A DNA stretch of 63,904 bases, filler included, from Reclinomonas americana ATCC 50394 (lineage: Eukaryota): the NCBI GenBank assembly GCA_048213135.1. It is 14 parts of 14 records of this genome, joined end to end, with 100 filler letters (N's around TTAATTAATTAA, not from the genome) between each part and the next. Parts side by side here need not be neighbours in the genome. Positions count along the whole stretch, not along the records: positions 6,096 to 16,449 come from AFZH01023296.1; positions 16,550 to 35,041 come from AFZH01023297.1; 12 more parts are not named here. The stretch is one strand, 5' to 3'. Both the position numbers and the translations under genes were made by a program. The stretch's first letter is position 1. Each line of letters starts with the position of its first letter. Positions 7,471-34,995 of this stretch are shown piece by piece. A model generated the notes under the pieces. That model was not told the DNA's origin. It made no database searches and was given only the letters and a program-made list of their open reading frames with translations.

Positions 7471-7512
7471 GCAGCGCGCAGCGCGCAGCGAAGCGCAGCG
7501 AAGCGCAGCGAA
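7471..7512 (+). repeat. Short GC-rich tandem repeat
   Basis: gcagcgc gcagcgc gcagcgaagc gcagcgaagc gcagcgaa. Confidence 0.8.
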
Positions 7513-7775: not shown

Positions 7776-10700
7776 ATGTCAGCACGCCGGCTATCGCTGG
7801 CTGTGCTCTCGTCGAGCGACAGTCGCCAACGCTCCAAACTCTTCAACACCGACTCATTCACATTCGTCATTCAGCAACTGTTCCGCTCACACGACGGACC
7901 GCAGCCGCTGTTCACCTCTGTTGCGCGCACACACACACAAGCACACACACGCGCACAGATTCCCTCTCTGTTTCTCACGCACAACGCACGCGTGGTATTT
8001 CTTGCACCACTACTGCTTGCCTTTTCACAGGTGGCATGGATCGACGCGTTGTGTTTTTTCGCCGTGCACATGTCCGCGTTCGCCACAGTCATGTCACCAA
8101 TGGTGTTGGCGGGCACGGGCGAAAACGTTTTTCTCGCCGCCGCACTGCTACCTCAGGTAACTACACTCCGCTTGTTTGATGTGTTTTTGTTGTCTACGAA
8201 TGCGGCAGCGAGTGGCCGTTTCGAAACCGCCAAACATGTGATTCTCTTCTTGCTCCCTTTTTGTGTTGCAGATGATGACGCTGGCGCGCTTCCATGTGAT
8301 CTTCGGCTACATTTCGATCTTTGTGGCCGGCCTCCTCGCGCAGGTGGTGCTGCTGTGGTGGTTGTCCAAGTCGAAAAAGACGGAGTCACAAACCGGTTCT
8401 GGACAAATCACTGGCAGCAGTGGAGGCTTGCACAGCATTCTGAGTGCCGCCTTGCGTGTGCAGGTGCGCACCTACTCTTCCTCCCTCCCTCCCTCCCTCT
8501 CCCCCCGTTTCCCCGTTTTGTCTCCCGTGACACACTCTTGCAGATTGCGCTGGCTGTTGGCCCGTTTCTAACGGCCATTACCCTGGTCCTGCTGCGGCCC
8601 TTGCACTGCGACTGGATCTCGCTGGAGAGCCTCAGCCTCGACACGAGCATTCACTTGGGCAATGCAACGTGGAGTTGCGTCGTTTCCACATCGCACAGAT
8701 GTAAAGAAACTGGCGAACGCTGAAAGCATCTTTCCAATGTCAGCGTGTAAGGAATCCACCAACATTGTGCTCGGCGTCATGGGCATCCTCATGACATTCT
8801 TCTTGGGCGCGCTCGCGATCCTCGCGCCTCTCATGTTGCGTGAGGCAGTTTTCTGTTTCGTTTTCCCCCATTTGTTTCGGTTTCTCACTCCCTCTCTCTT
8901 CAGCTCGCTGGACTTCCGCCCCGCCTCCCGCCTGTGGACGGCCGGATTCCTGAGTGGACGCTTCCTGGCCACTCTCAACGTGCTCCGCATGCTCCTTGTT
9001 GTTTCCCACACCTACGGTGCCCATCATGCACCTCTCTTGCACTTGGGGGTGTGCGCCTGCGTCGCGCTGGTGCTGCTGATCGTCGCGGTGCGCTACGTGC
9101 CGTTCTTTGTGGTGGCTGCCAGTCGCATCTCCACTTGTTGGTGCCTCGCGATTCTGTGCGCCGCCGGTGGCTGCGCGGCGGCCGTCCTCGTACCGGCAGT
9201 GACGAAGAGCAGTCTCGGAGAGAAGATTGCCACGCCGGCCATTACGGTAGGCGCCGTTCTGGTGGCACTGCCGATTGGCCTGCTGGTACACTGGTTGCAA
9301 CAGCGCTTCATCAGTCGACGCACCGACAAGTTCATCGACGGCACACTCGACGGCAGTGCCACGAGCAGCAAGGGCAGCAGCAAGAGCATGCTGCTCTCTC
9401 CGACGGAGCGCTACCTGGTATGTTGACACCTGTTTCATTTCCCCCCTTCCATGCGTCTCCAACACGCTAACATGCATGCATGCATGCAACACAGCGCGGA
9501 GCCAGTCGGTCCAACATGGGCAAGAGAGTGACTGTGGAGGAAGACAGCGAAGAGGCCGCCTTGCGGCACCTCTTCGCGTCGCCGTGGTCCGTGGAAATCG
9601 CCGCTCGCCTCCCACCGGCCAACACGCTCGAACCGTGGGCGCGCGCCATGGACTTGTTTGAGCTCGGTGCGCCGTGGCCTCTTTTCCATGCGTGCTTGCT
9701 TGTCACTGACGGACAAGCTGGTTTGTGTACGTATGCAGGCACTTTCCGATTCAGCGACGGAGACTCTGCCGCATCGCTCACGGTGCAGCTGCTGCACGCA
9801 ATCTATCTGTGGAACTACAACGTGGACATTGACCGAGCGCAGCAAGTGATTGCCGAGGTGGCCGCGCAAGACGAGGCCAAGCATCTCCTCCCGATGGACC
9901 TGCATCGAATCGTGCAGGTGGCGGCCAACTCGTTCAGCACCAACGACGACTCATTCAAGGAGGCCTCGTTCCACGCTCGCCTTGCAGCGCTGCACCACGA
10001 ATGGTGTCAGTGCTACGTCATCAGCATTGCTGCGTGGCGCAACCTGGAGACCGTGGGTCAACGCACAGGTACGCGCTCGTGCCTGCCGTTTCCTGTCGCG
10101 ATTGACATCTCTCCTCACTCATCACCTCTCGCTCACAGACGAGAAGCTCTTGTCGCTTCTTCTCTCACTGCGTGAGCAAGAGGCGACCACTGAACGCCTC
10201 TTCAAGTCCATGATGAAGGACTTTCCCAACAATGCCGATCTTGTGTCCTTGTTTGCCATGGTTTGTCGGGAGTTGAAGCTCACCAGGCGAATGGAGGCTG
10301 TGCTCACTCGTTTCTGCACACAGTTCACCTCCGAAATCAAGAACGACACACACGAAGGCCAACGACTGGACGAAGTCGCCGATGCCATGACCACCGAGTC
10401 TGGCTTGAATAACAAGACTCGCACTGCAGAGCGCGAATACGAAGTAATGGAAGCCGTGCAGGTTCGTGCAACAGCATCATCTCTTACACGCTGTCCAACG
10501 CAGTACGCTTATGATCGTGTCGTGCAGAAAATTCGGTCGTTTGCAACCAGGAGCATCAGAGGCCGTCGAGGAAGCGCGGTGGAGGGCATCGATGTGTACG
10601 ATGTACTCGATCTTGACCGCTGTGAGGGTCGTGACATGGATGCGAAAGGCAAGTCTGCACTCCATTTTTCTGCACTGCTTCTGCTGTCCTCCCTCATTTG

Positions 10701-13700
10701 ACACGCGCGCATGCAGTGCAAAATCTCGGGCGCCGACTGAGCACCACCGATGATGTTGTGACTGCTTCATCAGAGACCCTCACGGAATCGACAATGTCGA
10801 TGGAGAGCGATGGCGTGCCGCAAGGTGTGCATCACTTGGCAATTGTTGAGATCAACGACAACCTTCCTTACCATTGTCGCACGCAGCCGAACAGTGGACC
10901 ACAACCCGCCTGAATGACACTGGCCCACGTCCGCCGAAAGCAGCGCAGCCGGCTCGCCGAAAGCAATCCGTCGCAGCTGGGCCGGGTGATCGACGCAACA
11001 CGGTTATCGGCATTGATCGCAAGCAGTCGGTTGCCGCCTTCCGCAGACAGTCGGTGGTCGGTAGTCTCTACAACGTGAGTTGTCACGAGCAGTGTGGTCT
11101 TTGTCTGCTAGCCACGTTGACTCACTCTAGTCTATTGTTTGCCCACCAGGTCACGGAGCATGTTGCTCGCCATAGTGAGTCATCCAGAAACAAGCTTCGT
11201 GTTGAGTCGACGCGCTAATCCTTACCGCACAGTTGATCCGGTGGACACCGACAGTGACTCGGAGGCATCCAGTGGGCACGGATCAAGTACTGGACAGAGG
11301 TTTTGTGTTTCCAATCTCACCATGCGTGCATTCGCCCTCGACTCAGTTCTTCTCGAACACAGCTCGCGCCCCTCTGGCTCCCGAGTGAGTATGGACACTG
11401 ATTTCTCGACACTCTCCTCCTTCCGGCACACCATTGCACGCGAAAAAGTGAGCGTCAACACAAGAAGTGCATGCAACCAAGGGTGTCATCATCTGACCTC
11501 TTGCGCTAGAATCCAACCATGGACCGTGCCATGTGGGCACTGTTCCTCACGGGTCTCGTCTTCTTTGTGGTGCTTGCCTTTGCCGGCGCCACATCAAAGA
11601 CAACCATGAAGGAGACATACCATCGCCACGAGGTGTATGAAGTCGTTTCCGATGCTGGGTGCGTACATGTCTTCTCACTGAACAGCCTCTGCCTGTCCTT
11701 CATCTCTACTAACTTGCTCGCATGCAGTGTTTACGGCACCCTGGCCAGCATTGCCGCTCTCCAGATGCACTACTATGCGAAGACGAAGATGCCTTCGATT
11801 TCAGAAGAAAAAGTGGAAGAACTGCGAGACTATATTCACGAAAACTGCACGACTATTCGAGAGTCGCTGGATGTGCTGAACACGTTGACGTTGCGTCTGT
11901 TAAAAAAATGTGTGTGCGTGCGTCATCCTGTTGCTCACCACCGCGTCTGGTGAGAACAGCGAGCAATACGACAACGAATTCATCTTTGCCAACGTCTTCA
12001 CTCTGTTGTTCAACTCGAAGACTACCTACGCAGGACGAAAGCTGCAGATGCACTTTGACACGGTGACAAAACACTTCGACGACATGATGGTTTGCTCCAC
12101 TCTCCAACTGCCCCAGCACTGTTGCTGTGACCTTATCTTGCTTTGCGTGCGTGTGCAACAGTTGTACGCACAACAGTCGTACCAAAACGCCGGCACACCG
12201 TCGCTGCAGATGCCTGCATTTGCGGAGGGTGTCAGCAATGCCATTGCGTCCAAGGAAGCGTGGTACGAGATTGCAGACGAGCTGGTGGATCACATTGTCG
12301 TCCATGGACTGGAGATGAAGACGACGCTGTGGGTGCAGATGGGAATTGTGGCCAGGTGCGTTGCTCGCTGCCTTGCCTTTTTGCGTAAGCCTTTCTGGAA
12401 TTGTGCCCATTGGCGCCTCGCTTCAGTGTGATCGGTGCTGTGGTATTTGGACTGTTTCTGCCGGCGGTGGTGATGGTGCGCAAGAAGCTCAACGAGGGAC
12501 TGGCCACATGTCGCCTGGTGCCGAAGAAGGAGGCAGCACAAATGCGACAACAAGTGCAGGCTCAGTACCTGAACTATCTGGACCTGTCGGACAAGGCCCG
12601 CAATGTTGAGTCGCCACGAGCAGCACTGTGTTTCTGGCAGGCGCTCATTGTGTAATTTGTTATACAGGGAGTGCATCCGTCGACCGTGGTCAAGTCCAAG
12701 TTCCTGCCCACGCAGTGCGTTCGGGCGGACATGCAGTTCCTGCACAGCCTGACCTTCCGCAGTGTGGTGGTGCTGTTGGTGGTCATTGCCACCATCATGA
12801 CGATGAAGTTGCGTGAGATACATGAAGAAGTGATCGTGTGAGTACCGTGTTGCTCACATAGAGTGTTTTATGTATGCCAGCTGGACGAATACGGAAATCG
12901 CCGCCACCACATCGCATGCCATGCACGTTGTGGATTTGCTGATGCAGCGGACAGCCGACATTGACACGATGACATTGGCGGTGTGGCAGCACACCACGCC
13001 AGACGGATTGCTGTCACCGGACGACACGCTGGCGAGATTAGCAGATCAAGTGAGCAAAGCAGAAAAGTCATCGGTGGCCGCACTGGCAGTGGCCGACCAG
13101 GGTGGGCTGGATCCGGCCGCCGACGACCTTGAGCACGCCATGTTATACAGTGAGCGATGCCGGCCGGAGGACCGTGCTACCATCACGGACCCCCGATGGC
13201 GAGTGGACCTCGATTGCCTCCCGATGATTTCATTGGTTTGTACACGTGCAGAGATGCATGAGTATGCTGCGCAGCTCACTAACAGGCCTCTTCCTTTCAA
13301 CACAGATTAACAAGGTAATCGCAGGGGCGCGAGACATTGTCAACGCCGGAACCCGTGTCGGCCCGACCGAGGTGGATCTACGCGACATGATTTTCGCCGC
13401 GCATGGCCTGCTGCACACGTACTTAATCGAGAGCTGTGAAGTGAGTAGCCCAGCGGCGCGTGTCATTGTCATTTGCGGTCGCGCTAACTGCGCTCTGCAG
13501 TTGTTCAAGACCTCGTACGAGCACTACATTTTCCCGCTGCTGGTTCTCGGACAAGCAATGTTGGGTCTGGGAGTTGGTGTGGCAGCGATTGGGTTCTTCT
13601 ACTTGCTGGCGCCGTTGTTGCGCGTGTGCGACCAGGAGCTGCGGTACTTCAAGAAGTTCGTGGCCGGTCTGCCTTCGGGCGCCATCAACTCGGTGCCAGA

Positions 13701-16700
13701 GTTGCAAAAGGCTCTTCTTCCTCGTTGCGTGACGGCTGGATGCCTGGTGATGCTTCGCGAAAACGAGGAATACTCAACCTGTAAGTTCGTGTCGTGTGGT
13801 GGTCGCTCGCAGACTCACTGCTGGTGTCGATTCAACTCAATCAAGAGCTCAACGAGAGCGAATACATGTTCCGCGGCTTGACGTCGTGTTGCGTAACTTT
13901 CTGGATTCACTCTGTGTCTGCATGCCTGTCTTACATTGTGACTGTGTGATAACAGTGTTTGGACTTGTCCTTACTTCAGAGGCGGTAAGGAATGCACCCA
14001 AGAACCTCATTGCAAGCAGCAAACTCACGCTGCATGTTGCAGCTTATTGTCGAGTCTGTCAACAAGTCTTTCACGCGGATGCTCGGATATCCAGCCGACG
14101 CAATTGTGGGCTCGCACATCAAGGTGAATCACTGTGAATGTGGTGTGTGGCAGCACCCACTTGAATATTCATGCATATTTGCAGGCCATCATTCCACCAA
14201 ACATGCACGCCTCACACGATGCACATGTTGCTCGACACATGAGCCAATCGGGAATGGCCGGTGCCCGAATTCTGCGCGTGGACAGACCGACAATGGTTCG
14301 TGATTATGCTTGCACTTCTGCCTCTTGCTGCCGAGCTAGTCAGGATGACAATCGTCCCTCCAGGCCCGTCATCAAAACGGCAGTGACATTCATGTTCGCG
14401 TCATCGTCATCGAAGTCATGGTGAACGGTCGCCGTCTGTTCGCTGCCATGCTGCACGATATCAAGGATAAAAAACTCAAGGCCGAAACAGTTCATCGAGC
14501 GCAAGCAAAGGTAGTTTGTTGCTGTGTGCACCCTGCGATGTAATCGTCACTCAGCGCTGACATTCTTCTTTTAAACCCAGGTAACCTCCATGTTGTCCAC
14601 CATGCCACAAGCCACCATCATCAGCGACGCCACCGGCATGATCCACAACGTCAACGGAGCCGCTGTTGATCTGTTCGGATACGGCAAGCCCAGCGATCTT
14701 ACCGGTCATCACATCCGCATGCTGATGCCGGCGCCACACGCGGAGCGACACGATTCGTGCGTGATCCAATCTCAATCTCAAAGGCTGTTGACCGCTGCTC
14801 ACAACTCGTGTGTGTGTGACATTGCACGATCAGATACATCTCCTCGTACATTACGCGGCACCCACACAGTGCGGACATGAAGCACGGAGAGACCAAGTTG
14901 CGGCGGCCGTCCACACAATTCCCCATCATCTGCCTTTTCAGGGAACTCACACTCACACACACACGCGCAGATTCCGCGACGTGCAGGGACTGCGCAAGAA
15001 TGGCACCGTGATTCCGCTCCGTTACCACACTGTGGATGTGACAGTGAACAGCCAGCGGTACTTTCTGGCAGTGCTGCACGACAATGTCAGCGAGGCACAA
15101 GTCCGAGCCGGCTACGAAGAGCGCATTGACCGACTCAGTGGCATGCTGTCGACCTCCAATGATGCAGTTGCGCTCATGTGTCGGTCCGCTGAGAGTGCAT
15201 TCACTTCGCATCGCTCACCTGCACGTGTGCGTGTGCAGATCTTGTGGGCCGACCAGAATGGCATGATTCATTGGTGCAATGCATCCGTGTCGCGCCTGCT
15301 CGGCTACTCGACCGAAGAACTCACTGGTACATGCTCGCCAGCTGTGCTCGATGCCTTGGGTTGATTTTTGAGACTCACATTTTCGTTGGGGAACACAGCC
15401 AATCGACAAGCGTCAGTGTACGACGTGTTGCGGCCACTGAGCACGGTCGAGTTGCAGAGTGGAGCAATCATGGAGGCGGAGCTGTTCCGGAAAGATGGAC
15501 AACAGTTGCGTCATTGCGTGGAGATGGAATGCCGGCATGTCATGACAAGAGTGTGCGTTTTCAGAGTGCGGCTGGTGGTGCGCGGTATGCACACGGTGGA
15601 AGCCGGTGAGGTGCACACGATTGTGCGTGTGTCAGAGCCGAATGCGCAGCTGGTGCACATACACAAGCAGGAGCAACACAATGACCGATTGCAGGAGGTT
15701 TGTTCATCTGCCTCTTTGTGCGGTATTCGCGCGAACTCACACGGGCTGCTGTTACACAGCTGTTGCGCATGTCGTTCCCAGCGGCAGCACTGGACAAGAT
15801 CACGGCGTTGTCGAAGGACGAGGCGCAAGCGATGTTGAGGACGGTGAGCTGTTGAGTTTCGTGTTTCCTGTGAATTCACGCGCTCACTGGAGAAGCAGGA
15901 TATCGACGAGTCGCGATCACCGATGTGCACAATGTTCGAGTATCACGAGGAGGCGACGTGCATCTTCATCAAGATGGTGTCGGTGCAGCGGGTGGTGCCC
16001 GAGAGTGGTGCGTGTCTGCTTGGCGATGCGCGAAGTTCACAGCTGGCTGAATGCGGATGTGTTTTTCTTTGCAGGCGAAGTCGTGGCCGTGCCGCTGGTC
16101 GACAAGATCTGTGTGTTGCACGAGTTGTTCACGGCATTCGACGCACTGGTGCGACGACACAATGTGGAGCGCGTGAAAACGATTGGTGAGTGCGGGCGAC
16201 TGATGTTTGGGCATTGTTGTAAGCATCACCCTCATTGACAACGCGATCATGTGTGCAGGATCGGCGTACCTGGCGGTCTCTGGCATGTATGTGCCACGAC
16301 ACGATCACGCCACGGCAATCGTCGAGTTTGCGCTGGATTGCCGGCAGACGATTCTGCGATTGAGTCGCGAGGTGAGTCGAGATGGAGAAGACGTGAGAAT
16401 TCGCATGGTGTGGTGTGCTCATGTGATACGCTTCTCTCGTTGCTTCAGCNNNNNNNNNNNNNNNNNNNNNNNNNNNNNNNNNNNNNNNNNNNNTTAATTA
16501 ATTAANNNNNNNNNNNNNNNNNNNNNNNNNNNNNNNNNNNNNNNNNNNNATGGACTGCAAATCAAGTTCCGCACTGGCATCAACACGGGGCCGGTGACCT
16601 CGGGAATTGTGGCGGGCCTCATTCGGACGTTTGATTTGTATGGAGGTGCGTGGCGGTGGATCGAGCCCACCCTGTGCTCCAGCTTTGCTCATCTCCTGCG

Positions 16701-17015
16701 CAGACTCGGTGAATGTGGCATCGCGAATGGAGAGCTCGGCGCCGTTTGGTCGCGTCCAGCTGAGTGAGGTGAGGAAGAGGAGGGAGAGGGAGACGCACAT
16801 CGATGCACCTGTGTTGATGTCGGGGTGATTCTGAACGTCGTCGTGGGCAGTCTACAAACCGCAAAACGCGCGGCTTGTTTGAACTGGAGACGACCAGCGT
16901 GGAGAGTTGCGTGCGATTCCCGTCGACAGCTGTGTTGTATCTCACTCACGATACGTGTTGCACAGTCAAGGGAATTGGATATGTGACGACGTTCCTGGTG
17001 GTGCCGCAGGAGTAG
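7776..17015 (+). CDS. Eukaryotic multi-exon gene (about 40 introns): TmcB-like multipass membrane protein with 3 PAS domains and a C-terminal class III nucleotidyl cyclase domain; spans the spacer at 16450-16549
   Basis: Hydrophobic TM exons; PAS motifs VNKSFTRMLGY, VNGAAVDLFGY, WCNASVSRLLGYSTEEL; cyclase motifs VKTIGSAYLAVSG, FRTGINTGPV, FDLYGDSVNVASRMES, IKGIG; GT-AG introns of about 55-120 nt restore the frame; stop TAG 17013-17015. Confidence 0.85.
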
Positions 17016-17172
17016 TAATGTTACCGTAGTAGAACAGCTGCTTGTGACGTAATAATGCACATGCAGCGAGCGGTGTGTTTGGTAGAAAAAGGAAAAAGAA
17101 TGTGCACAAATATTAATATAAGATGAGCGTCGCAGCAGGGGTGTCCTCCTCGTCCCCACTTTCCACTCGTGA

Positions 17173-18906
17173 ATGGCGCGAGGCGCCCCGGTGCTCCTGC
17201 CCCTGCTGCTGCTGCTTCTGCTTTTGTTAGTGTGCATAAGCAGCACACAAGCACGGCAACAGCAGCGACGGCAACAGAAGGAAGCTGCTGCTGCGCCACC
17301 GAGTGCAGAGGACAGTGAGGAGTTGGCCGACGAGGGGGAGGAAGGCGACGCAGAGACTGGCGAGTACGATGATGATGCAGACGCGAGTGCAGAAGAGGAG
17401 TCGCCTTCACGGAGGCGAGGCGCGCGACCAGCAAAGACAGTGACGAAAGCGACGCGTGCCACGCGTCACGAGAAGAAGGCAGCGGGCAAGGCGAAGAAGA
17501 GTGGGAGCAAGAAGGTATCTCCTCCTCCTCCTCCCCCACCACGTGCGCCACGCAAGACAAGGCCAGCGGAGAGCGCAGAGGACGAGGAGAGGAAACCAAG
17601 TGCCTCTTCTTCTTCCGCTTCTTCTTCCGCGTTGCCAGTGTGGATGCGACCGGCTGAGCCGCTGCATTTGCCCGACACACACAAGCTGCCGTCGAAGCGC
17701 ACAGTGGCAGAGGTGACGTGAACGCTCTCCCCATCGTCACCTCTCCTCTCCTCTCACATGCGTTTCGCAGAATCGGGAGCACATCAAGTATCTGTGTTCC
17801 AAGTTCCTGGCGGGACCGCGGCCGGTGGCCGGCTATCAGCTGTGGGAGAGCGGGTTCTCTGAGTTTGGGCAGGACCGCTACGTGAGTGATCTGTATGGCC
17901 GTTCGCGCGAGGGCACGAACCACTCGGTGGTGCGGTCGCGACTGTTTGAGCACCTGCGACCGGAGATGCAGGAGCGCTTGCGTGGAACGGGTGCGAAGCG
18001 CGTGAAGCGTCGCTTTGCAGGCTTCTTCCTCGATGTTGCGGGTCGATTCGGGACGCCATGGCCCTCTTCCGATTGTTGCTGACTTTTCTAAATGCAGGTT
18101 GGTGCTGGCGACGGAGAGATGAACTCGAACACGTGGCTCCTCGAGCACTGCCTCGGCTGGACGGGACTTGCGCTGGAGCCGGTGGCGTCCAAGTTCTCGG
18201 CGCTGCGTCAGTGGCGCCCTCACTCGGTGCACTATCAGGCGGCGGCCTCGAACCGAGCCGAGGCCGAGTGCAAGTACAGTTGCGCCGTGTGTGTCGCTCT
18301 CGTGCTCGTGCTCGTCTGTGCATCTTACCCCCTCGGACACGCAGTTGAGAACGCACCGATGCGCTTCTCTGGGTTGCTGGATGTGGCGCCCAAGGGAGTC
18401 GACCGCACGCCCACGAGTGCTTTCACGGTCCCGTGTGTGCGGCTCGATGATTTGCTGGACTATCACGGCATACATCAGGTGGACTACCTCAGCGTCTATG
18501 CCGGTGAGAGAGAAGAAGGGGGCAGGGATGGGGAGAAGGAGAGGGAGACGGGGAAGGAGAAAGGAGAGAAGAGATAAGAGAGGGGGGAAGAGCGGAGAGA
18601 GAGGGAGAGGGGCAAAGGAGAGAGAGCGGGTGAAGAGGGAGAGGGAAAGGCGGAGAGAGTCAAAGAGCCTGAACAGGGAGAAGAGGTCCGCGATACTCAC
18701 TTGCATGACACACAGAGGGCGGGGAACTGGAAGTACTTCAAGGTCTCGATTTCGCCAAGAACCACGTGGAGGTCATCTCGCTGCGACAGCACGCGCGCCA
18801 CACCGACATTGACACGCTGTTGCGCCAGCACAATTACACCTTCGTCACCAAGGTCGGCGACGAAATGTTTTACGTACACAATGACTTTGAGCAGGAGGGC
18901 GAGTGA
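17173..18906 (+). CDS. Eukaryotic FkbM-family methyltransferase-domain protein with signal peptide/anchor and acidic/Lys/Pro-rich linker (multi-exon)
   Basis: Spliced FFLD|VGAGDGEMNSNTWLLEHCLGWTGLALEP and VDYLSVYAEGGELEVLQGLDF; Leu-rich N-terminus; stop TGA 18904-18906. Confidence 0.8.
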
Positions 18907-19420
18907 ACGCGAACAAGATGTAGGAGGCAGATTGCCGATCAAGATCGCTGCTTTACGGGACAGGGATATCACAACTGCAGCGACGACGGCCAGCACAATC
19001 ACAAGTCTGAAGGTCGCAGAGTTGTTGCTTTCCGAGAGGGCAGAGGATCACTTGGTGTGCATCGTACAACGTCGCGCGGCGAACAACAACAACAACAATT
19101 CATTCACCAACAAACAAGCAACAGCTGTCTTGATGACCAAGTTCAACCGTATAAAACATCATCACAAACACCAGTCTTGAGGCCTAGGCCAGCAGGATAC
19201 ATGTGTGTGCGCCGAATACCGACTTGCCGAATTCGATGTCCCGGATCCTCATTGGTAGCAAGCGCAACTGGTGCCTGTTGCAATGAGAGGAAACAGAACA
19301 GCCTACTGACAGGAGCACCAAAGACCAAAGTGTCCGATTTGGCGGGAAGCGTGAATGACTGTCTCCACGTGCTCGCGGGTTGTTGAGAGTGTCTGTCGCG
19401 GTCACGACGACGCGCTCACT

Positions 19421-22400: not shown

Positions 22401-24615
22401 TCCGCGCAAGAGTAATCGGGCGCACGGTCCATCGGCGACTCTCGATCTGTCGGCCTCGCTGACAGTGTCGACTGCGTCGCCGATTCTGCGCCGACAAATG
22501 AGCATGCCTGCACAAGGTAGAGTTGCACGGCGCGCTCTGTCACGACTCACACTCACTCCTTCATGCGCAGCCTCCGGATTCTCGACGAATGGCGCCGGCG
22601 CCCGTGCAGGCGGCTCCAGCGCCAGTTCCAATCGCAGCGTGCGCAATCTCGGTACACTTGGGGCGATTGCATCCGGTCTCTCCATCACATCGCCGTCGCC
22701 CGGCCCACTGCACGACATGGCGCCGCTGCCCATCTCCATTACACCACTTGCGTCGTCGTCGCCGCAGTATCCGCGCATGAATCGGAGTGCGGTGCCAACG
22801 AGGGATGGCGGTGACGAGCGCCCGCCTCTGTTCCCTCCGATCAATCGAGGCAGTGCGGCATCGTCTCAGCAACCTACGTATCGTCCGTCGGTCTCCGCGC
22901 AATCGGGCGACGTCATGCTCTATCGCGCCACCGCTGCCTCATCGTGGGGAGTGTCGGATCCGGTGCTGGCTGGCGCTCGTCGTGGGAGCATTGACATTGC
23001 TGCGCTTGCCACGTCTGTCATGTCGCCGACCTCGCGAAACGGCACGGCAGGCTCGCGTCTGCCACGGCTTTCCACGACAGGCTATGGTCGTGCTGGTGTT
23101 CCGAGTCTTCCGTCGCCGCGCAATGCACCCAAGCAGCAGCGGGCGGTGCATGGTGACGGATCCCCGCCGCAGCTGCAACCGTACTACGCCCGCAACGGCG
23201 CCAAGTTGCACGACTCATCTCCGTCGCCGTTGCGTACTCGTCCCCCTCTGTGAACACAACAGTGATGATGATGTTGATGGCTCACATGTTGAGGCACGCA
23301 CGCAACACAGACCACTTGGTCGTCGCAATCACGGTGCGCCTCTCCAGCAGCTGCAGCAACAGCAGCCGCAACAGCAGGCGCAGCTTCCGCTGCAACAGCA
23401 ACAGCAGGCGCAACAACCGCAACAGCAGCAGCAACGTGGGGTGTCGAATCGACCACAATTCGAAATGTCGGCGCACGGCGGCAGTCACACGGTCACCGTT
23501 CACAGCACCGCCGACGGCACGAGTGCTAGTGGCAGTCGCCGCGGAAGTGCTCCCTCGAAGAAGCCTTCACGCGTTCCCGCCACCGCAGGCCAGCCGCGCA
23601 TGCATCGCGTGGTGACTGACGCGTTTGAGAAGCCGCACCCTGTGATGAAGGGCCGCCGGAACGACCACCTGGCATCTCGGTGATTATATCCGCGCCGCCT
23701 TTGAGAGTCATTTGAGGTGCGCTCTGACACCGGGAGGGTTGTATTCCGATTGTGTAGTGCTGGAGAGAAACCGCCACTGATTGAGCGGTTGGGAACGCCG
23801 CCGACAAGCAGTCAGCTCGGTGTGTAGCTCCACTGCGACAGCTTATTTCACCCTTTTATTTTTTGTCCTTTCCGCTGACCCATGTTTGACGGCTGCACAG
23901 AGCGCGCACAGACAGCCGATCCGTCCATGCTCTCGGCGCAGAGGCGCGCCCATGTGGACGACTTGGTGTCTGCACCACATCATGTCTCGCGTTTCGCCGA
24001 CCTCAGTCCGCGACTCGTCCATCCAGGCGTACAGTCGCTGTGGGTGGCCGACAAGCGCCCGAATTCCTCTGCGGCCTCCGGAGTCGGCGGAGCACCGGGT
24101 GCATCTACGACTGCCAATGTCAGACCGGCGCGTGGTTTCGCCCAGCAGCTTCTCTCCATATCGTCGAGTCTGGCCGGTGAGCAACGCAGTGGCGGCAGCG
24201 CCGGCGTGGCAAACGTGGTGGCGGCCGTCTTGTCGGGGGACGAATGGGCGTCGGTGGCTCCGCGGCGACATCCTCGTGCTGGAGGGTGTGTTTTCCCCCT
24301 CTGCGCAACGCGTTTTCGTTCCACAGTCTAACATTGCTTCTCATGTGACAGCACGACGGCCGCAAGTGGTGCCGTCACACCACCGTTGCTTGCGGGTGAC
24401 AGGTCCCTGAGTCCGCCGATATCTCCTCGCCGCCGCCAGCTTCGCCACGGGTACGGCATATGATTGCGCTTCTCCTCTCCCTCCTTCTTATGCGAGTCAT
24501 CCTGTCTGACTGCTGCGGTTCGCGTAGACGCACCACGGCGCCCATATCTCCTCGAGTGATTGCAGAAGAAGATGTTGCGTTGAGAAGACCGTGTCTGCTC
24601 CATCGATATGGATAG
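19421..24615 (+). CDS. FAM149/DUF3719-like protein (ciliary family) with long Ser/Pro/Gln-rich tail; 3' end uncertain (23683 or about 24615)
   Basis: Spliced motifs LKAVDNQLY, CEPWREAYAYF-VRG, EEIIESHGYYEEWFA and PPLNPQAAVKEAI..VW resemble conserved FAM149 blocks. Confidence 0.65.
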
Positions 24616-24803
24616 CGTCTAACTGCTCATCGTCGCAGAGGTTGCGCAAGGCGGCGGCTGCTGACGCGCTGCAGGATCTGTTTGCCAAGGGCCATGCTTT
24701 GCAGTGAACATTATAATAATCGTGTGCCAACAACACTGGAGATTAGTAGTCTATAGTCTTCATCATCTAATTGCCATTCGATTATTCAACTTGCAACAAC
24801 GTA

Positions 24804-27800
24804 CTAGCAGTAATAGGAGGGCGCCAGCATGAGCTCGGTGAGCGTGTCCAGCTGCTCCTCGGAAAACAGAGCCTTGTCACGCGCCCACGTGTCTCGGTGA
24901 TCCTCCCAGAAGTCATTAAGAATTTTACGGACAGCCTCCTGCACGCAGTGGTCGGTGAGAGTCTGTGCACTCCACACACACACACACCCCTGCACGTAGG
25001 AGCACACTCACCGCGACTGGCGACGGGTCGTTGACATGGCGGGCGATCTTGACCATGATGACCGGAATGTGCGGGCGGACCTCGTGAGGCGACGCCATGA
25101 CAATGGCGGCAAGGCCAAGAATGCCGCTGTGTCGACGCAGCGCCAAGGATCGAACTGGGAGAACATAGTAGCAGTGAGCAACGCAACAAATGTAGGACGC
25201 GATCGTGTAAAAAGGCACACAACTGTCCGGGTGCGCCATGTCAAATCGTTTGCCCTTCTTCGGCAGCGGTGTCTCTGCCAGACCATCGAATCGCCGCTGC
25301 GCCGTCGTCGCATGTCCTCAGTTAGAACCGCGCACAAGGCAGGTGGGGGAAACGGGCGCAAAACGCAACAATCAGTTCAGCGAGCCGGCCTTCGGCTTCC
25401 AACGCCGGTACAAAGGTGGAGAGGGTGGTCGCAGCCGCCTCACGGACCTCCAACGTCTCGTCGGACAAGGCGGCCAGCATGGTCTCCACAAACTGGCCCC
25501 ACGATTCCGCGGTCAACATGTACCGATTCATGAACACGAACGGCCTGCGGCACGGTGAGGAACACAGTACCAGATGGCAGAGAGTGATAGAGACATGCAT
25601 GAGTGTCGCAACTTGAGGAAACACAGCAGCGATCCGCGTAGCAACCAGCTGTGGTCCGAGGCGCGCACCACCAACAGTTCGTGCACAAAGCGGATGAGGA
25701 AGTCGGTGTGATTCGCAGCCGTGAACGGTCCGTTTCCAAACACCGTCCCCGGTGCCGGCGGTTCACGTGCGCCGACGTACAGAGCGTGTGCGAGGCCGCC
25801 AAGAACCTCGTTGAGTGCCTCTTGAATGTACTGATTGTCGTCAAGGGAAGAATAAAATGAGCGTGCGTCAGCCATTGTTCCCCCCTGCTCGCCCACCAAC
25901 ACCAACCTCATCCTGCGTCACCGACGCCTTGACAATGTGCGGCAACAGCGGCTGAATGTACACCAGCAGAGCCGGCAAACGGGCCGATCGGGAGCACTCG
26001 CGAACACATTCCACGGCTGTCTTCAGGGAGGTGCGACACTATAAAGTCAAGGAGCACAGCAAAACACACACAACACATGGAAGCACCAACACATGCATCG
26101 ACATGAAGGATATTTGAGGAGATTCAACTTGCGGCGCGTCTCGACCGACATCGACCCCATGGCAGTCAGCGTGCTGACCATGGCCGCCACCTCGTCCGCG
26201 TCTCGATCCTCCGTCACCGGCACCAGCGCCTTCTTCTTGGCTCCCATCACAGGCTTGGACGACGGAGTCCCACTCGGGCCGGCAGCGCCGTCCTCTTCGC
26301 CCGCCATCATTCCCTCGACGGCGGCCATCATGGCTGCCACGGCCGCAGCATCACCCTCACCATCGCCCATGTCGTCGTCGTCGCCATTTTCGCCATCGCT
26401 GTTTCCCATTTCCACTTCTTGGTCGTCCTCCAGCGGTGACTCCATTTCCTCTTCCGCCTCCTCTTCGCGAGAGCGACTGCTCTCCGCGTGCGGTGGCGAT
26501 CGCGAGCGCGGCCGCGAGAATCCCGGACTCATCAAGTCGACACTGGGTGTGAATGGGCTCGAGAGTACTTCTGGTGTGAATGGGTACGGATCGACGGGCG
26601 TAAAGTCGCCGCCATCACTGGCCGAGCCGCTGCTCACGGCCGCCGGCGACGGCGCCGACAGCAAAAGTCGCGGGGGCGGAGCGGCGGTACCCGTTGGCTG
26701 ACGTGGAGCACGTCCCGAGAAGACACCTGTCGTTGCCGACGATGCGGCGGCGGCAGCCGCGGCAGCAGCAGCAGCAGCACCAGTCGTCGCCGACGGAGCG
26801 GCTTTCTCGCGCTGCAAGTGCAACGACTTTTCCAGCTCCACTGCCTCCACCACGTCGAGCGTGGCCAGCTCGGCCGCCCACGTGTCGAAGAACGCCATCA
26901 TGCTGCAAGGGAGGCCATCAAGGTAAGCGGGCAAACGAGAAATGTGTGCGGAAGACAAGCAAAAATTCACTCACCGCTGATCCACATGACTGCCGGAGGC
27001 AGTGGTGGCCGACACGCGGAAACCCTCCGGTGTCGAGATCAACGCCGGTCGCCACACGTGCTCGATCATCTGTAGCGGCAAACAGGGTTGTGAGACAGAG
27101 AGGAAGCAGCGGCAGCGAGGGCATGCTGGAGAAGAATAACGCACAAGACTCAGCAGCGAGCCGAGCTGCCGGCGCACTTGGTAGGAGCCAGACTCGCAGA
27201 AGCCTTTGATCTTGTCCAACACTCGGTCTGCGTGCGTGCGAGGCAGATGCGATAAGTATTAGTCTGTCACCGGCTGCCTTCGCGCAAATCGTCGACGCAA
27301 CAGTTGAGATGCGGCACACGCCACGAAAGCTCGATCAGCAGCGACAGCAAATACTGGATCTGGCGCAAGTGCACGGATGATGGAACTTGAGCGTTCGAGT
27401 TGAGGTCGTCGAGAACGAGGTCTGCGTCGGAAAGCACGTGTGTGTCCCGTGCGTCAATGAAACTATGTGGAGGCGTGACAGATAACAATTCGCAAAAGAA
27501 AAAAAAACGCACCGACGAGCCACCCGAGGCGACGCGGATCCTGTGACGATAAATTCACCAAGTTGGTCAAGAAACGAATCAGGATCGAGGCAAGAACACG
27601 ACAGCACCTTGTCGTACGACGAGTTGATCAGGCACTCGGTCCAGTCGCGCGCGCACTGCAGTGAGCTGTGCTGCAGGCCGTAGCGCAGTACGCTGCCGAC
27701 TTCTGTCCACTGCGTAACACATATACGAATCAGACACACGAAGCTGGCGATCATGCTTGCAGCAAGACCACAGCAAACTCACCAGGCGCTGCTGCTCCGC

Positions 27801-30800
27801 AAACAACCAATGCTTCGAGCCACGAATCAAACCCGTGATAATCTCCGCCATTGTGCGCATGCTGGTACGCTCCTCCGGGACGGTCTTGCCGGCAACCTTG
27901 CACAGGTCTTCGACAATCGGCTACGTACGATAACAACACATCAGCAGCGGCCAGTGAGTATGGAAATGGTTCAAATGACAAGCGCAACTTTGAGCAGATC
28001 CCACAGCGGCATCCCAATCAACTGCGTCCATCCTTTCCACTGCATACAGAGTCAGCACAGAGCAGCTATCACCGCGTTCAGTTGACAGCACGCAACGACT
28101 TCCACATTGGTGGAGTTAAATTCCTCGCCCTGATGCGCATTCCACAGCGCGTTGGTGATCACTGAAAAAGACACCAATGCGACAAGAAACACGCGCACAC
28201 ACCTCGTTCGTCACTTCCACCATGCACACGTCAATAAAGTCACGCAGCCAAAACGCAGTTTCCTTGCCAGCCGGGTGGCTCTGGAACAGGGCAAGCAGGG
28301 CGGTGGCCACTTCCTCATTCCGGTACACCGTCACACTGTCTGCGTAGCTGTAGCCTCGCGTGGGACCCTTTGGATACGCATAAAACCCAAATGAATCTGA
28401 CAAATCGACCGTGAGAAGTGAATGGAAACAAGGTGGAGGGCAAGTGAGACGCAACTGCGTTCAACAAAGAGGCATGATCGCCACTCGGCCTCGGTATGCG
28501 GCCGCTGCTCAGAAATCTCAGCGTGCACCAAACCCGACGGTCGATGGACGCTCTCGTCCGCCCTGAGCGACACGCGGTGAGTGACCAAATGAACACAGTC
28601 GCATTGCGCCATTGTTCGACCACGCACCAATCCTTCATGTGCTTTGGTGAGAGTGGTTTGAACACGTACAACAGTTGACCCATCACCGAACGCCTGCATT
28701 CGACACACTCCACGTAAGTCACCCATGCCGCCACGCATCGATACCTTCACGTGCTGACGCAACGCTTGGTCGCGAATCTCAAGCACGTCCGACGTCAACT
28801 GGCGGGTGATGAACAGCAGCAAATCGGCCGGTGGCGGCACGTCGAGTCGAATGAGCGACGACATGATCACCAACAGCGTCAGCTGAATACGCCAGTTGTC
28901 AAGCGGAATGCTGTTCGGCGGTTGAGCAACAGATATGTCAAGAGCACGAAAGCGGTGTGGGCGTGGAAACGCAACCGGCCAGCTGCATAGTTTTCCACAA
29001 AGCGTTGGTAGTGGTGCATGAGGACATGGTCGGACGACGAATTCGGCGGCACCAGACGGCGGCCAGGAGGACCCGGCTCCGTCACCGCCAACCAAAAGCG
29101 AATGAGCTCGTGGATTTTGAGAATGGCAGCGTCATCTGTACGCATGCATAGTATAAGTGTCAGTCCACAGAGCGGAGAATCAGCATCGACACAGCACGAC
29201 GTGAACACAACGTTGCGTGGCGGTGAGCGCGGCACCACCGCACAGTCGCTCAAACCCAACACACGACAGCGTCAACTCATCCACCGAGTGCACCGACACC
29301 CACTCGCTCAACGAATACAGCATCTGTCGGATTGATGGCTGTGCGCGAAGCGAGCATCAGGGTGAGCCACCAGCAGTGATGTGGCACACCCTATCTTCAA
29401 CCCAACCTTCTCAATGTGAGTGGTCGCCACGAGCGCCAGTGCCAAGTACTGAAACAGGTTCCAGTCGTCAAAGATACCAAACACAGAGCGGGCCACCACG
29501 TACAGGGCGCCCTTCAACCGCGCCTCCGAGGCATCTAATTGGAGGAGGCATGGAGAGATGAGTCGGCCTCTCGTGGAAAATTGTCAACGACAAGCAGACG
29601 CACCGCGGTCGAGCAGCACGGCAAGGAACTTGCGCAGGCATTGCTGGCCACGCTCGCGCGAGAGCAGGGATGAGACATTGCCGAGAATATCTTGCGCACA
29701 ACTGAGCACACACAAGTGATGAGAGGCAAGGGCGTTTCCTGAAAAAGTCGACCAGCACCACGCAACATGCGAACGACGGCAAAGTCGTGGAGAGCCAACT
29801 CGACGGTGTCGTTCAGCAGGCTCTCGGCAGAGGCCCACAACTGTTGCGTAGGCCGCCTCGCAGCGGCAGTGATACGCGAGACGTGCAAGACGTGGCAGCG
29901 GTCGACTGCAGCAGAGAGTTAATGGCAATCGAAGAGCTCGCAAGCATCGTGGGCGACAGCGAAACTGGCGTCGGCACGGGAGAACTCGTGGCGCGGGTGA
30001 TACGCGTCATAGTACAGCTGCTTGGACTGCTCGCTGGCATTCGTCACATCCACATGCGTCGGCAGTGGGCGATGCACCAGAATGGCACCAATGAGCTGGG
30101 ATGCACAGGTAAATATTTTAGAGGAAGAGGGCGGGCATGTCCACACTGGGAAAGAGACCAGTGCTCACCTTTGACACAGAGGTCCAGAGTTTGGGGAAAT
30201 CGTGCAAGCGCGAGGAAAGCTCAACGCACACTCGGTGCACGGCAGCCGCCACCCGCGAACGCATACTTGCAGCCACATCTGTGTTGCGCGAGGAGAGGAT
30301 GAGACTCTGACACGGAGCGGCCGCACGAAGCACTTACCATGCAGAGCCGGGTTGTGTTCTCGCAGGGAGACAGAAGACGTCGAAGTGATCATGGGCAACA
30401 GCGCTTGCCTGCATAAACATGAGAACGCCGCGTCAGTCACACGAACAAACACACAGCCACCGGAAAGACAAACGCAACGATGTCAAGTCGCGCTCCTCCT
30501 CCTCGGTTTCCACCGAGAGCAATTCGTCGGCATTGAATTCGGGGCTGAGCAAGCCCGGAAGCACGACGCTGGATCCACGAATCACCTCCCGCATCACCAC
30601 CAGCGAGTGAATCAGAGTTGTAACCAGATCGCTATCAGCACAGAACGCACGAAAAGGGTGATGAGACATCAGCAGTGCCGTCGCCTTCTTGCACAGCTCG
30701 AGCGTGCATACGTACCTAATGGGTACACGCCGTGGGGACGCGGACACCGCAGGCGAAACCGTGTTGCGCTTCTTGGGCGCAGGTGCAGATTCAGCCTTGC

Positions 30801-33800
30801 GGGGAGATGCCCGGGCCGGTGAGCGGCCCCGTCGCCGCTCGGTCGCAGCTGGAGCCTCCTCGCTCGCGCCACCGCCGATGAGTGAAAGCGAGGGCGGCGG
30901 AAGCGGTGCCAGCACCAGCAGCTCTGTCACGGCGTTCTCCAGCTTCTGCAGCTGCTCATCCACGAGGGATGCAGCTGTGGACACGACACACTCCACCTCG
31001 GCCGTCGACTGTGCACAGCGTGCAAGAGATGATGAGTTGAATCGACAAGGACGCAGAGCAGGCGACGGCGACGGTAGAGACGCACCGGCACATGCCACTG
31101 CAATTCGAGCTCTGAATACTTCAATTGCAGGGTCCAGTAGCGCCAACTGGCCGCACGGAACTCTGCGCACCAGGCATAAGGTGAGCGGAAGCTGTGTGCA
31201 ACCCGACAGACGCTGCTGTCACGAACCAGCTGAACAGCGCACAGATGCAGGCACGGAGCAGCGGTCGGTGGGGAATATGTTGCAGAGAGTCCACAGGAGC
31301 TGCATAGCGCGGTGCGACGAGTCAATGCGGGCACTGCCACGAGAATCGCAAAGCGAATGCACAGTACCACTTGCATAACACCAGCAGCGCGCTTGCGGAT
31401 CTTGCGGTCGTCGCTGGTGAAACACGCCTGCACAATGTCGCGAATCGCATCGCTGTATTGCCTCGTGAGGGACAAGCCACTCAACACACAACACTCACAG
31501 CTCACGTGGACGCAACGCATGCGGCAGCGCCGCTGAACCACTAAAGTACAGGCAGCTGGTGAGCAGCTGCAAGTTCCACAGCACTTCGTTTTGCGACAGA
31601 TTCTCCAGTTGCACTGATGCGTCGCACAGTCAGATGGCGACAGTCAACGTGAGAGCAACCAGTGGTGTCTCCTGCACTCACCGCCAGTGGGCACTCGCTT
31701 GACCATCAGCACGTGCGCATGATGCACAAACAGGTGCAGGCAGTCGGCCGGTCGCTCCGCAGCTGCGCCAGCCACCACAGAGCGCACCTGCGGCACATGG
31801 AACGAAGTGAGCTAGATCAGTCTCTCACTTTCCATGTGCTGCCTCTGTCACGTACAGTCTGCAGAATGTCCATGTTGATCGACACGGAAAGCGAGTCGAA
31901 AATGTGGCGCACAAGGCGCGCGGCCGTTTTCTCCGGTGACTGTGCCAGCAAGAGCCGGAACACACGCTGTGTAGATCAAGTGAGTACAAACATTGAGTGC
32001 AACACGACAGAGTGCAGACAGAAAGCAAGCAGCACCTGGCAGTTCCACTCGACGGTCTTGACGCTCACGTTCTTGATCTGCAGCAGATTCGGGTGTGTGT
32101 GAGGATTGTGGTGTTACGAAAAGTGGAGATGACTGGGCACTCACGTATTTCAACATGCTGTCCAACAGCGAGAACGACCAGTCCTCCCACGCGGAAATGA
32201 CCGTGACAATCGCGTCTCTGTGCGCCCGGCAGAGTAAGAGATCATCAACGTGCATGTAACATGCATGGTGCGCGTGTGTGTGTCATCTGCACACCGATGC
32301 TCCGCCGACATGGCTTGCAGCGCAGGGTGCGACGGATCACAGCCGTGCAGTGGGATGCACGTCAACATGCCTGCAGAGAGAATAAGACAGAGGCACACGC
32401 ATACACAGCACAGCAGCGGGTCGGGATCACGCAACGCGCAGTGAACGAGATCGCGGCCCTGGACTTGGCCACATTGCTCGGCGACATGGCCTCGGGGATG
32501 TGAGGCAGCACAGCCAGCATGCGCAGGGCGACCTCGCCGGGCGGACCCGAGAGCAGAGCGCGGTACATGTCGCGGCACACGTTGAGAGCAGCGGGAGGCC
32601 GGTGCAACTGAACGACGACAATGGTGGTGAGTACGCAGGCGTAGTTGCATTCAAGATAAGGAGTCCACCAACCTCGGTGACCGCGTCCAGTGCATCGGAG
32701 ATGTTGTCCATGAACTTGGGAATCACCAGATCCGGTGCAATGACTATTGAAGTGGCCTTGTGTGAGATACAGAGGAACGATGGTGCGATGCTTCGGCAGC
32801 GACGCAACAAGAGAGGTACTTGAAGCCTTGTTGCGTGAAACGGCGAAGCCACGAATCGGTCGAGTACATGCCCTTGAGCAGCAGCGGAAGCATAATCGAG
32901 ACCACTTCACGCCGCTCGTACTCCTGCGCGCCATCAGCGACAGCAAAGGCACATTCGGAGATACGAGTGACAGTGATGCAACGCAACTCCAAGAAACATG
33001 GAACTGTCGTACTCCACCACACCGTCGCGCTCTGTATACATTGAGGAGTGAGAATCTAAACGACGAAACACACAAACACAGGTGACGACGACTCCGCACC
33101 GTGAACCAATCGAGTCGACAGCTGCCAGCAGATACCGTCGAGCAAACTGGTGAGATTGTTCACCGGCTGCGCGTCATGTTGCAGCGGATGGTAAAACCTG
33201 CACCCACGCGATACTGAGCTCTGCGCTGGCATGCAAGCGACACGCTGCAACAACGTACACGTCGAGCGATGCGATCAGGCGGCGGAAGAGTGACAGGCAC
33301 TGAGGTCGTGTTGGCGACAGCAGGAACACCAGGAGCGATGCACCGTATCGCAAGGCACTCCGCTGGCATGCGCAAGCAGGGGAATAGATGAGAACAGTGC
33401 GCGGCAAGGATACACGGTCAAGCTCACACCGACCTCGCCACCATCGATTTCCGAAAACAGCCCAGCGACCTCGTGCGCCTCCAGCATGGTCGACATGCCG
33501 GAGAGCGGGCCCACCTGGAGCTCTGCAACAACACCAACAGCGCGTGAGGTGGCCAGGCTAGCAAGGGGAAAGAAAAGGTGACGCACCGAGGATGCCCATG
33601 ATCTTGGTGAAGATGGTGTCGAGATGAGGTCGCCAGTCCACAGTGTCCCCGACGCGGGTCGCCAATCGCGAAAAGATGACGAAAAAGTCCAAATCCCACG
33701 ACGATCCACTCGCTGTCGAAGGGAATGAGTGCACCGATTGTGGCCACACATACACAAGAGTGAGAGTCTAGAGTGCGTCACGTACAATCCCACGTCCACA

Positions 33801-34969: not shown

Positions 34970-34995
34970 AAGAAAAGAAAGAAAGAAAAATACAC

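Follow-up and report, generated by a model that had tools for sequence, protein, structure and literature searches.

By what signal is the 5' end of an intron recognised in a genome in which about 27% of the predicted introns start with GTTGCG or a close variant of it, side by side with ordinary donors in the same genes? This question is raised by two eukaryotic contigs (A and B) within a stretch of DNA of 63,904 bases, here called the window, from the Reclinomonas americana ATCC 50394 assembly GCA_048213135.1. The introns in question are found in three predicted genes:

7616..17015, plus strand: PAS-domain adenylate/guanylate cyclase gene, about 48 predicted introns, across contigs A and B; Pfam PAS and Guanylate_cyc
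17173..18903, plus strand: FkbM-type methyltransferase gene; Pfam Methyltransf_21 in the open reading frames 18092-18574 and 18709-18903 (model end 18577, domain end 18903)
24804..34592, minus strand: PSME4/Blm10 proteasome activator gene, about 52 predicted introns; Pfam PSME4_C and HEAT_PSME4, tblastn of homologues

An initial annotation of this DNA had described such donors as shifted forms of the normal donor. This observation is confirmed, and the class turned out to be larger than first reported.

A GTTGCG class of donors

Genes were modelled with a self-trained exon-chaining gene finder based on codon log-odds, which allowed every GT or GC to serve as donor and every AG as acceptor; a table of donor 4-mers and an intron-length prior were added in later training passes. 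The models of the three genes contain 105 introns. Of these, 28 start with GTTG followed by A, C or T and a G (class S), 47 have a G at position +5 (ordinary donors, class N), 4 start with GC and 26 belong to none of these groups, many of the latter being doubtful. A 29th S donor (8674) was added by a hand-made model; several of the counts and tests below were performed with the 28 donors predicted by the finder.

With this addition the class comprises 29 of 105 predicted introns (about 27%). The 19 GTTGCG or GTTGAG sites listed in the initial annotation are all present where it placed them and are all predicted donors in the final models, while 10 further members were found here. The word is exactly GTTGCG in 27 of the 29 donors, the two others being GTTGAG (12605) and GTTGTG (25223, ambiguous). 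Counts of GTTGCG within the three gene spans (20,495 nucleotides, nt) are 31 for the sense and 7 for the antisense strand (binomial p = 1e-4). Its sense-strand excess ranks second among all 4096 hexamers and first among hexamers starting with GT. In a finder pass in which all GT received equal scores, GTTGCG was the top donor (13 of 113), followed by GTGCGT (8) and GTGAGT (6). Predicted donors account for 27 of the 31 sense copies, the exceptions being located at 13617, 15427, 15762 and 25187.

Several details of the earlier description changed. For the cyclase gene, where 11 of about 42 introns had been counted, the class was borne out and the tally is now 12 of about 48, including 8674. Two sites assigned to this gene, 18035 and 18279, belong to the separate methyltransferase gene according to Pfam. 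The six examples given for PSME4 were all recovered, out of a total of 15 in that gene. A GTGGAGT donor at 8669 would yield an intron of only 30 nt and was replaced by the better GTTGCG donor at 8674, which gives a 70-nt intron up to 8743; this hand model also supersedes the GC donor of the finder at 8629.

The predicted S introns are listed with coordinates, strand, donor sequence and length. Alternatives are other GT-AG pairs that keep the frame.

7920..8030, plus: GTTGCGCG, 111 nt, phase 0; cyclase; no alternative
8674..8743, plus: GTTGCGTC, 70 nt, phase 1; hand model, spliced product open, both exon frames joined
8835..8903, plus: GTTGCGTG, 69 nt; no alternative
11890..11959, plus: GTTGCGTC, 70 nt; model
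12605..12667, plus: GTTGAGTC, 63 nt; shifted GTGAGT form, no alternative
12808..12880, plus: GTTGCGTG, 73 nt; canonical alternative 12813-12861
13724..13812, plus: GTTGCGTG, 89 nt; no alternative
13888..13955, plus: GTTGCGTA, 68 nt; model
14897..14970, plus: GTTGCGGC, 74 nt; model
15167..15238, plus: GTTGCGCT, 72 nt, phase 0; within the second PAS domain, no alternative
15505..15564, plus: GTTGCGTC, 60 nt; model
16906..16965, plus: GTTGCGTG, 60 nt; no alternative
18035..18097, plus: GTTGCGGG, 63 nt; FkbM gene, model
18279..18344, plus: GTTGCGCC, 66 nt; FkbM gene, in frame and stop-free, thus predicted from signals only
32924..32987, minus: GTTGCGTT, 64 nt; PSME4, model
32744..32808, minus: GTTGCGTC, 65 nt; PSME4, TAG acceptor
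32371..32435, minus: GTTGCGTG, 65 nt; PSME4, no alternative
31453..31516, minus: GTTGCGTC, 64 nt; PSME4, frame-keeping GTGAGT alternative 18 nt downstream
30409..30478, minus: GTTGCGTT, 70 nt; PSME4, model
29702..29766, minus: GTTGCGTG, 65 nt; PSME4, model
28911..28975, minus: GTTGCGTT, 65 nt; PSME4, sole S donor with G at -1, no alternative
28694..28763, minus: GTTGCGTC, 70 nt; PSME4, no alternative
28397..28455, minus: GTTGCGTC, 59 nt; PSME4, model
28040..28096, minus: GTTGCGTG, 57 nt; PSME4, model
27921..27988, minus: GTTGCGCT, 68 nt; PSME4, TAG acceptor
27228..27301, minus: GTTGCGTC, 74 nt; PSME4, frame-keeping GTGTGC alternative 18 nt upstream
25545..25612, minus: GTTGCGAC, 68 nt; PSME4, homologue P0035 gap-free only with the cut before GT
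25297..25369, minus: GTTGCGTT, 73 nt; PSME4, homologues P0035 and P0002 gap-free with the cut before GT
25155..25223, minus: donor GTTGTGTG, 69 nt; PSME4, placed by homology, ambiguous, ordinary-type GTGTGC 3 nt downstream

The ordinary donor displaced by one nucleotide

Ordinary donors follow the consensus G/GTNNGT (the slash marks the exon-intron boundary), S donors the consensus H/GTTGCGT. The 47 N donors comprise 18 different hexamers, among them GTGCGT (11), GTGAGT (9), GTTTGT (4), GTGTGC (4), GTGCGC (3) and GTACGT (3). Compared to these, the consensus positions in S donors are shifted by exactly one nucleotide. T is found at +7 in 21 of 28 S donors (22 of 29 with 8674), mirroring the T that 32 of 47 N donors have at +6, and C is found at +5 in 27 of 29 S donors and at the equivalent position +4 in 19 of 47 N donors. 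The single GTTGAGT (12605) is the one-base-shifted twin of GTGAGT.

The last exon base differs as well. It is a G in 1 of 28 S donors (1 of 29 with 8674) compared to 30 of 47 N donors (Fisher p = 1e-7 for 1/28 against 30/47). The non-G last exon base, often A, that had been pointed out earlier was thus recovered in 28 of 29 donors, with A in 12 of them. It can safely be stated that the S class is without the -1 G preference of ordinary donors. Such a loss is expected if the intron's own G at +1 occupies that place. Taken together, the data support a reading of the S word as G/GTGCGT, the most frequent N word, moved by one nucleotide, with intron G+1 replacing the exon G.

T at +3 is also tolerated in ordinary donors (GTTTGT 4, GTTTGC 2, and GTTCGT, GTTGGT and GTTGGG). 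The GTGACGT reported near 17713 was found again as a predicted donor of a 58-nt intron (17713-17770, plus strand, gag/GTGACGTG) and resembles GTACGT with one additional G behind the GT. It may represent a second kind of donor with a one-base displacement; its -1 base is a G.

Intron properties

All 29 S introns start with GT, end with YAG and leave open frames joined upon removal. The length lies between 50 and 95 nt in 27 of 28 cases, with the same median as for N introns (68 nt), and 26 of 28 terminate with CAG. CTNAY (mostly CTCAC), at a distance of 8-40 nt from the 3' end, was present in 24 of 28 S and 35 of 47 N introns, compared to 40 of 304 exonic windows of equal size. Lengths, composition and 3' signals are identical in both classes, and the intron G + C content is 0.537 (54%). 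Because length, 3' signals and frame agree, and since these features are independent of the donor, the members of the S class are regarded as introns. No interior sequence is shared among them, the information content being confined to positions +1 to +7 and the last 3 nt; as the interiors are unrelated, the S introns are not copies of a mobile intron, and introner elements and repeat introns were rejected as an explanation.

Based on these properties, the S class is predicted to consist of real spliceosomal U2-type GT-AG introns of a very intron-dense lineage. Joined to the U1 reading developed below, this prediction forms the best explanation of the data, and we hold the two together with middling confidence.

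The introns at 7.6-18.6 kb (plus strand) and 24.8-34.6 kb (minus strand) are in general very uniform in length (most 57-80 nt, median 68), and CTCAC, CTTAC, CTGAC or CTAAC lies about 10-25 nt upstream of the CAG acceptor in introns generally. Microsatellites are frequent in introns and at contig ends, such as (CA)n at 7925-7960 in the 7920 intron and (GA)n at 34990-35041, which closes contig B.

The class could be an artefact of the gene models if nearby canonical donors were really used or if some of the stretches were coding. For four of 28 introns (12808, 31516, 27301 and 25223) an ordinary-looking, frame-keeping alternative indeed exists, the 18279 intron could be read through in frame without a stop, and the finder erred elsewhere. 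However, an ordinary-looking alternative is absent in the other 24 of 28, and in 10 of 28 the frame is kept by no second GT-AG pair of any kind (search within ±21/±30 nt). It had been claimed that a canonical GTGAG 5 nt downstream would break the frame at 8835 and 12808. This is correct for 8835, for which no frame-keeping alternative exists, but not for 12808, where the downstream GTGAG can keep the frame if joined to a TAG acceptor that lies 19 nt upstream, which gives a 49-nt intron (12813-12861). Neither the branch-like motif nor the narrow range of lengths depends on the donor, the strand bias of GTTGCG (31 to 7) also speaks against an artefact, and homologues skip the intron sequence at three junctions. 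An artefact is thus considered highly improbable.

Position of the cut

A cut after GTT also keeps all frames, so that the frame alone leaves the position undecided. If cleavage occurred there, the introns would be of the GC-AG type (GCGT...) and the upstream exons would end with GTT. The 3-nt move keeps each frame, and distant homologues permit it at some junctions. On the other hand, the S introns are spread over phases 0, 1 and 2 (8/9/11), and a constant exonic GTT across three phases would be without coding rationale, for which reason the cut before GT is favoured. Moreover, GCGTNN is unlike the ordinary donor and has no consensus beyond G+1.

The closest PSME4 homologues, P0035 and P0002 (40-57% identity in aligned pieces), required cleavage in front of GT for a gap-free alignment across the junctions 25612, 25369 and 25223. 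For P0035 this cut scored 495, compared to 484, 484 and 490 otherwise; for P0002 it scored 377, compared to 377, 366 and 369. The first PAS domain of the cyclase, which lies in a single exon, was compared with the second PAS domain over junction 15167 and yielded a gap-free score of 63 with the cut before GT and a gapped score of 60 with the other cut. An extra gap would thus be needed for P0035, P0002 and the PAS repeat at 25612, 25369, 25223 and 15167 if cleavage followed GTT. Membership in the GC-AG class was rejected in view of the weak donor when read as GTT/GCGT and of the gaps in the closest homologues, and a cut after GTT appears most unlikely. Frame, homology and parsimony are consistent with a predicted cleavage in front of GT, although the support they give is small.

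Pairing with U1

Duplex energies of sites from -4 to +10 were calculated with ViennaRNA duplexfold against the canonical U1 5' end AUACUUACCUG (also written ACUUACCU). The mean energy was -1.49 kcal/mol for S sites, -2.89 kcal/mol for exonic GT (n = 742) and -5.76 kcal/mol for N sites. S sites pair with canonical U1 below the level of random exonic GTs in any register (p = 2e-4). The register reading given in the initial annotation therefore stands in one half: the normal donor is moved by one base, but plain shifted or bulged pairing to canonical U1 is not supported in these calculations, the duplex energies being too weak.

A bulge of one U in the pairing with canonical U1 (bulge +3 or +2) would leave G+1 and U+2 paired and let GCGU pair as +3 to +6. 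The motif can be written GT-T-GCGT, and such a register has been described for human sites (PMC4856993). In that case the last exon G would still pair and should remain enriched, whereas it was seen in 1 of 29 donors, which led us to reject this register. The C at +5 would mismatch pseudouridine 5, yet it is near invariant where A would pair, and duplexfold yielded no stable bulged duplex for canonical U1 (mean -1.49). A bulged U is thus improbable.

Since the near-invariant C at +5 would mismatch canonical U1, the U1 that reads S sites probably carries a G opposite this position. With a G at position 5 of U1, duplexfold gave -5.06 for S sites compared to -4.30 for controls (p = 0.003), and -7.39 for N sites. 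A fully complementary guide gave -11.2 kcal/mol for S sites and -4.4 kcal/mol for controls. The variant U1 or U6 suggested as an alternative in the initial annotation would thus fit the S class better than plain pairing with canonical U1. The same change at position 5 is reported for the U1 candidate ACGUAC of Mastigamoeba balamuthi, which goes along with GUGCGC donors (10.1101/2022.06.08.495308).

We propose that one U1, probably altered at position 5, pairs in two registers, the normal one at N sites and one shifted by a single base at S sites, a kind of pairing that has been proven for a few human sites. In S sites the intron G+1 would sit in place of the last exon G, with TGCGT at +3 to +7 instead of +2 to +6. 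The later spliceosome (U6/U5/Prp8) would then pick the GU one base upstream of the junction defined by U1. The altered U1 could be the organism's sole U1 or one among several variants. Whether S sites are read in this shifted register, by a U1 probably bearing G opposite +5 and with the cut before GT, we regard as evenly poised between right and wrong.

A scan of the two eukaryotic contigs with Rfam for small nuclear RNAs (snRNAs) returned merely two sub-threshold chance matches. The search for U1 (RF00003) in 101 relatives of the bacterial genome found none, and was uninformative as none was found in 14 control genomes either. A candidate GC-AG intron was observed at 10649-10716 on the plus strand (donor aag/GCAAGT, 68 nt, CAG acceptor, branch-like motif). 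If it is real, it would argue for the presence of a canonical-type U1 in the organism.

The pairing data also bear on the chief competing possibility of two readers, namely canonical U1 for ordinary donors and a second U1-like snRNA (with a fully complementary, ACGCAAC-like 5' end) for GTTGCGT, comparable to U12-type introns, which are served by U11. The S motif is near invariant (27 of 29 exact), whereas ordinary donors are degenerate at +3/+4 (18 hexamers among 47). Canonical U1 pairs worse with S sites than with random exonic GTs, and the fully complementary guide stands well apart from controls (-11.2 against -4.4 kcal/mol). Furthermore, GTGAGT, GTAAGT and GTATGT donors and the one candidate AAG/GCAAGT intron suit canonical U1. 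On the other side, the 3' signals, lengths and composition of S introns are the same as in ordinary introns, while U12-type introns have their own branch site, and a motif that is the normal word moved by one can be served by a single reader without an extra RNA. Two readers therefore seem unlikely. A third kind of spliceosomal intron beside the U2- and U12-types, with GUUGCGU donor, its own U1-like snRNA and a shared branch site and 3' end in about a quarter of the introns, would be a distinctly doubtful proposal.

Recognition might also be independent of U1 pairing if a protein, or early-acting U6 or U5, read GUUGCG and the likeness to the shifted consensus were secondary. The weak canonical U1 pairing and the rigid motif would be in line with this. 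We know of no candidate factor, and the motif reproduces the normal word one base further on, with the T at +7 and without the G at -1, which argues for the same reader. This alternative is quite improbable.

Returning to the shifted register of one U1, several points weigh against it. The depletion of G at -1 is modest compared to the background (24.7% G before exonic GT, P = 0.003; 16% before exonic GTT). The pairing of S sites with a U1 carrying G at position 5 is only slightly above that of exonic GTs, and duplex energies disregard pseudouridine and proteins. A preference for C at +4 need not go along with a changed U1, since Thecamonas and five Mamiellales have retained the standard one in spite of it (10.1101/2022.06.08.495308). 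Homology separates the two cut positions by a small margin (3-11 score units), and more distant homologues either are neutral or lean slightly towards the cut after GTT (P0004 by 5 at 25612, P0114 by 2 at 25369). All S junctions are predicted solely from frame, signals and homology, and the evidence for the class comes from three genes of one organism. Class counts after training are partly self-reinforcing with a self-trained finder, and errors of the finder were exposed by homology at 25198 (right: 25223-25155), 13967 (right: 13985-14042), 25011 (should end at 24939) and 8629.

Comparison with known systems

Some human 5' splice sites of atypical sequence have been described to use a U1 register shifted by +1 (Roca & Krainer 2009, cited in PMC4856993, with ACA/GUCAAGUAU as the oligo tested). 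Validated non-canonical registers together account for an estimated 1.5% of 201,541 human 5' splice sites, compared to 0.9% for GC-AG and 0.36% for U12-type sites (PMC4856993). Non-canonical U1 registers in human sites are thus already known. As in the human shifted register, the consensus of S donors lies one position deeper, G+1 replaces the last exon G and cleavage would occur at GU (PMC4856993). However, all such registers together are rare in humans (1.5%), whereas about 27% of the introns predicted here fall into the S class, with its one near-invariant word, and the duplex with canonical U1 is predicted to be below random exonic GTs. The human bulge +3 (or +2) register (Roca et al. 2012, cited in PMC4856993) shares two U after G+1 and a displaced downstream consensus with the S donors. 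In contrast to these, it keeps the pair with the -1 G, which is lost here, where the C at +5 also has no pair with U1 position 5. The geometry of the S donors fits the shifted register better than the bulge register.

Donor words specific to a lineage are known from Archamoebae. Entamoeba has near-universal atypical donors with a re-matched U1, AACAAAC (Roy & Bowser, 10.1101/2022.06.08.495308). In Archamoebae, as in the present case, the donor word is particular to the lineage and has U at +3 or C at +4, which is explained there by a changed 5' end of U1. However, one donor type dominates the genome there, whereas two registers of one word occur in the same genes here (10.1101/2022.06.08.495308).

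The S introns also share with U12-type introns that they form a minority class with a rigid donor word beside degenerate donors of the major class. U12-type introns have the donor RTATCCTT and the branch TCCTTRAY near the 3' end. The S donor is GTTGCG and not RTATCCTT, and the branch-like motif (CTCAC-type) and 3' signals are those of the majority class, so that membership in the U12-type was rejected. Separately, a word of the U12-type donor, GTATCCTT, was observed at 33413 (33363-33413, minus strand), where a predicted PSME4 exon ends with ccgt/GTATCCTTG. The models disagree in this region (one 216-nt intron or two introns of 53 nt and 61 nt), and a clear TCCTTRAY branch was not seen there. 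The word may be a true U12-type donor.

In Mamiellales, AG/GTGCGT is the canonical donor, and the BOC1 introns of the outlier chromosome are numerous, short and AT-rich (<43% G + C), without conserved donor or branch motif (PMC3879977, PMC3491373). GTGCGT is likewise favoured as ordinary donor here, and very many short introns in some genes are a further likeness (PMC3879977, PMC3491373). Unlike BOC1 introns, the introns described here have a G + C content of 54% (0.537) and strong donor and branch-like motifs, by which an assignment to that class was rejected. A close match from Mamiellales did not turn up in the searches for protein homologues.

Among the matches listed, no description of GTTGCG or GUUGCG as a class of splice donors in any organism was found in the literature; those for the word itself concerned primers or microRNAs. 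The listed matches on shifted base-pairing dealt with human, yeast or worm only, and none of those on bulged-nucleotide registers dealt with a protist. One displaced, near-invariant word in about 27% of predicted introns, beside normal donors in the same genes and unexplained by canonical U1 pairing, would accordingly appear to be new.

Contigs and genes

The window consists of chained contigs and is not a single molecule. Linkers of the form N44-TTAATTAATTAA-N44 separate the contigs (3530-3629, 5996-6095, 16450-16549, 35042-35141 and nine others). Most contigs are bacterial, with 96-100% identity to one bacterial genome over 1-5995 and from 35142 to the end. The source assembly would thus be a bacterial genome or bin with a eukaryote as contaminant or partner in culture. 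The two eukaryotic contigs are:

6096..16449: contig A, flanked by N44-TTAATTAATTAA-N44 linkers, no match to the bacterial genome, dense short introns
16550..35041: contig B, no match to the bacterial genome, begins within the cyclase catalytic domain where contig A stops

Positions 33-60 of the Pfam profile Guanylate_cyc are found at about 16.1 kb (contig A) and positions 128-152 at about 16.7 kb (contig B). Contigs A and B are thus probably neighbours, separated by an assembly gap inside the cyclase domain (16380-16449 / 16550-16645). Within the cyclase gene, the finder introduced a further cut into two models at 11388/11519.

The C-terminal exon of PSME4 yielded 123 matches in an exhaustive search against representative proteins, the closest with 45-57% identity over that exon. 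Named full-length PSME4 matches are spread across unrelated eukaryotes (Amoebidium, Corallochytrium, Pharyngomonas, Mylnosiga, Gefionella and Salpingoeca). Loci related to the PSME4 exon were found neither in genome contigs nor in metagenome contigs. With a three-protein alignment as query, 7 marine loci with 35% identity were detected, in which GTTGCG codes for Val-Ala. The comparison of PSME4 DNA with 111 genomes of the bacterial genus gave nothing beyond short matches at chance level. Protein word searches with three exon queries returned no match within a length window of up to 2000 amino acids, which may leave out full-length cyclase and PSME4.

An 800-nt exon of PSME4 (26103-26902, minus strand) contains poly-Ala, Ser/Pro-rich and acidic low-complexity runs that are not part of the aligned homologues. 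Between the methyltransferase gene and PSME4 (19421-24707), a multi-exon gene on the plus strand rich in poly-Q, poly-Ser and poly-Asp was predicted, without a Pfam match. CTG/CAG repeats in this region give rise to chance copies of GTTGCG on both strands and to a sub-threshold Rfam match to isrG (23325-23426, E = 3e-4).

Biological meaning

It is an open question how U1 locates 5' splice sites of great diversity, and likewise how cleavage is then positioned independently of U1; work on both has dealt mainly with a handful of rare human sites. The S class is of interest to splicing specialists, but its description comes from predicted models of three genes. In the annotation of such a genome, standard gene finders trained on GTRAGT-like donors would misplace one junction in four. 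The organism would be a natural test system for register flexibility, for the hand-over from U1 to U6, for the co-evolution of snRNA 5' ends and splice sites and for the birth of an intron class.

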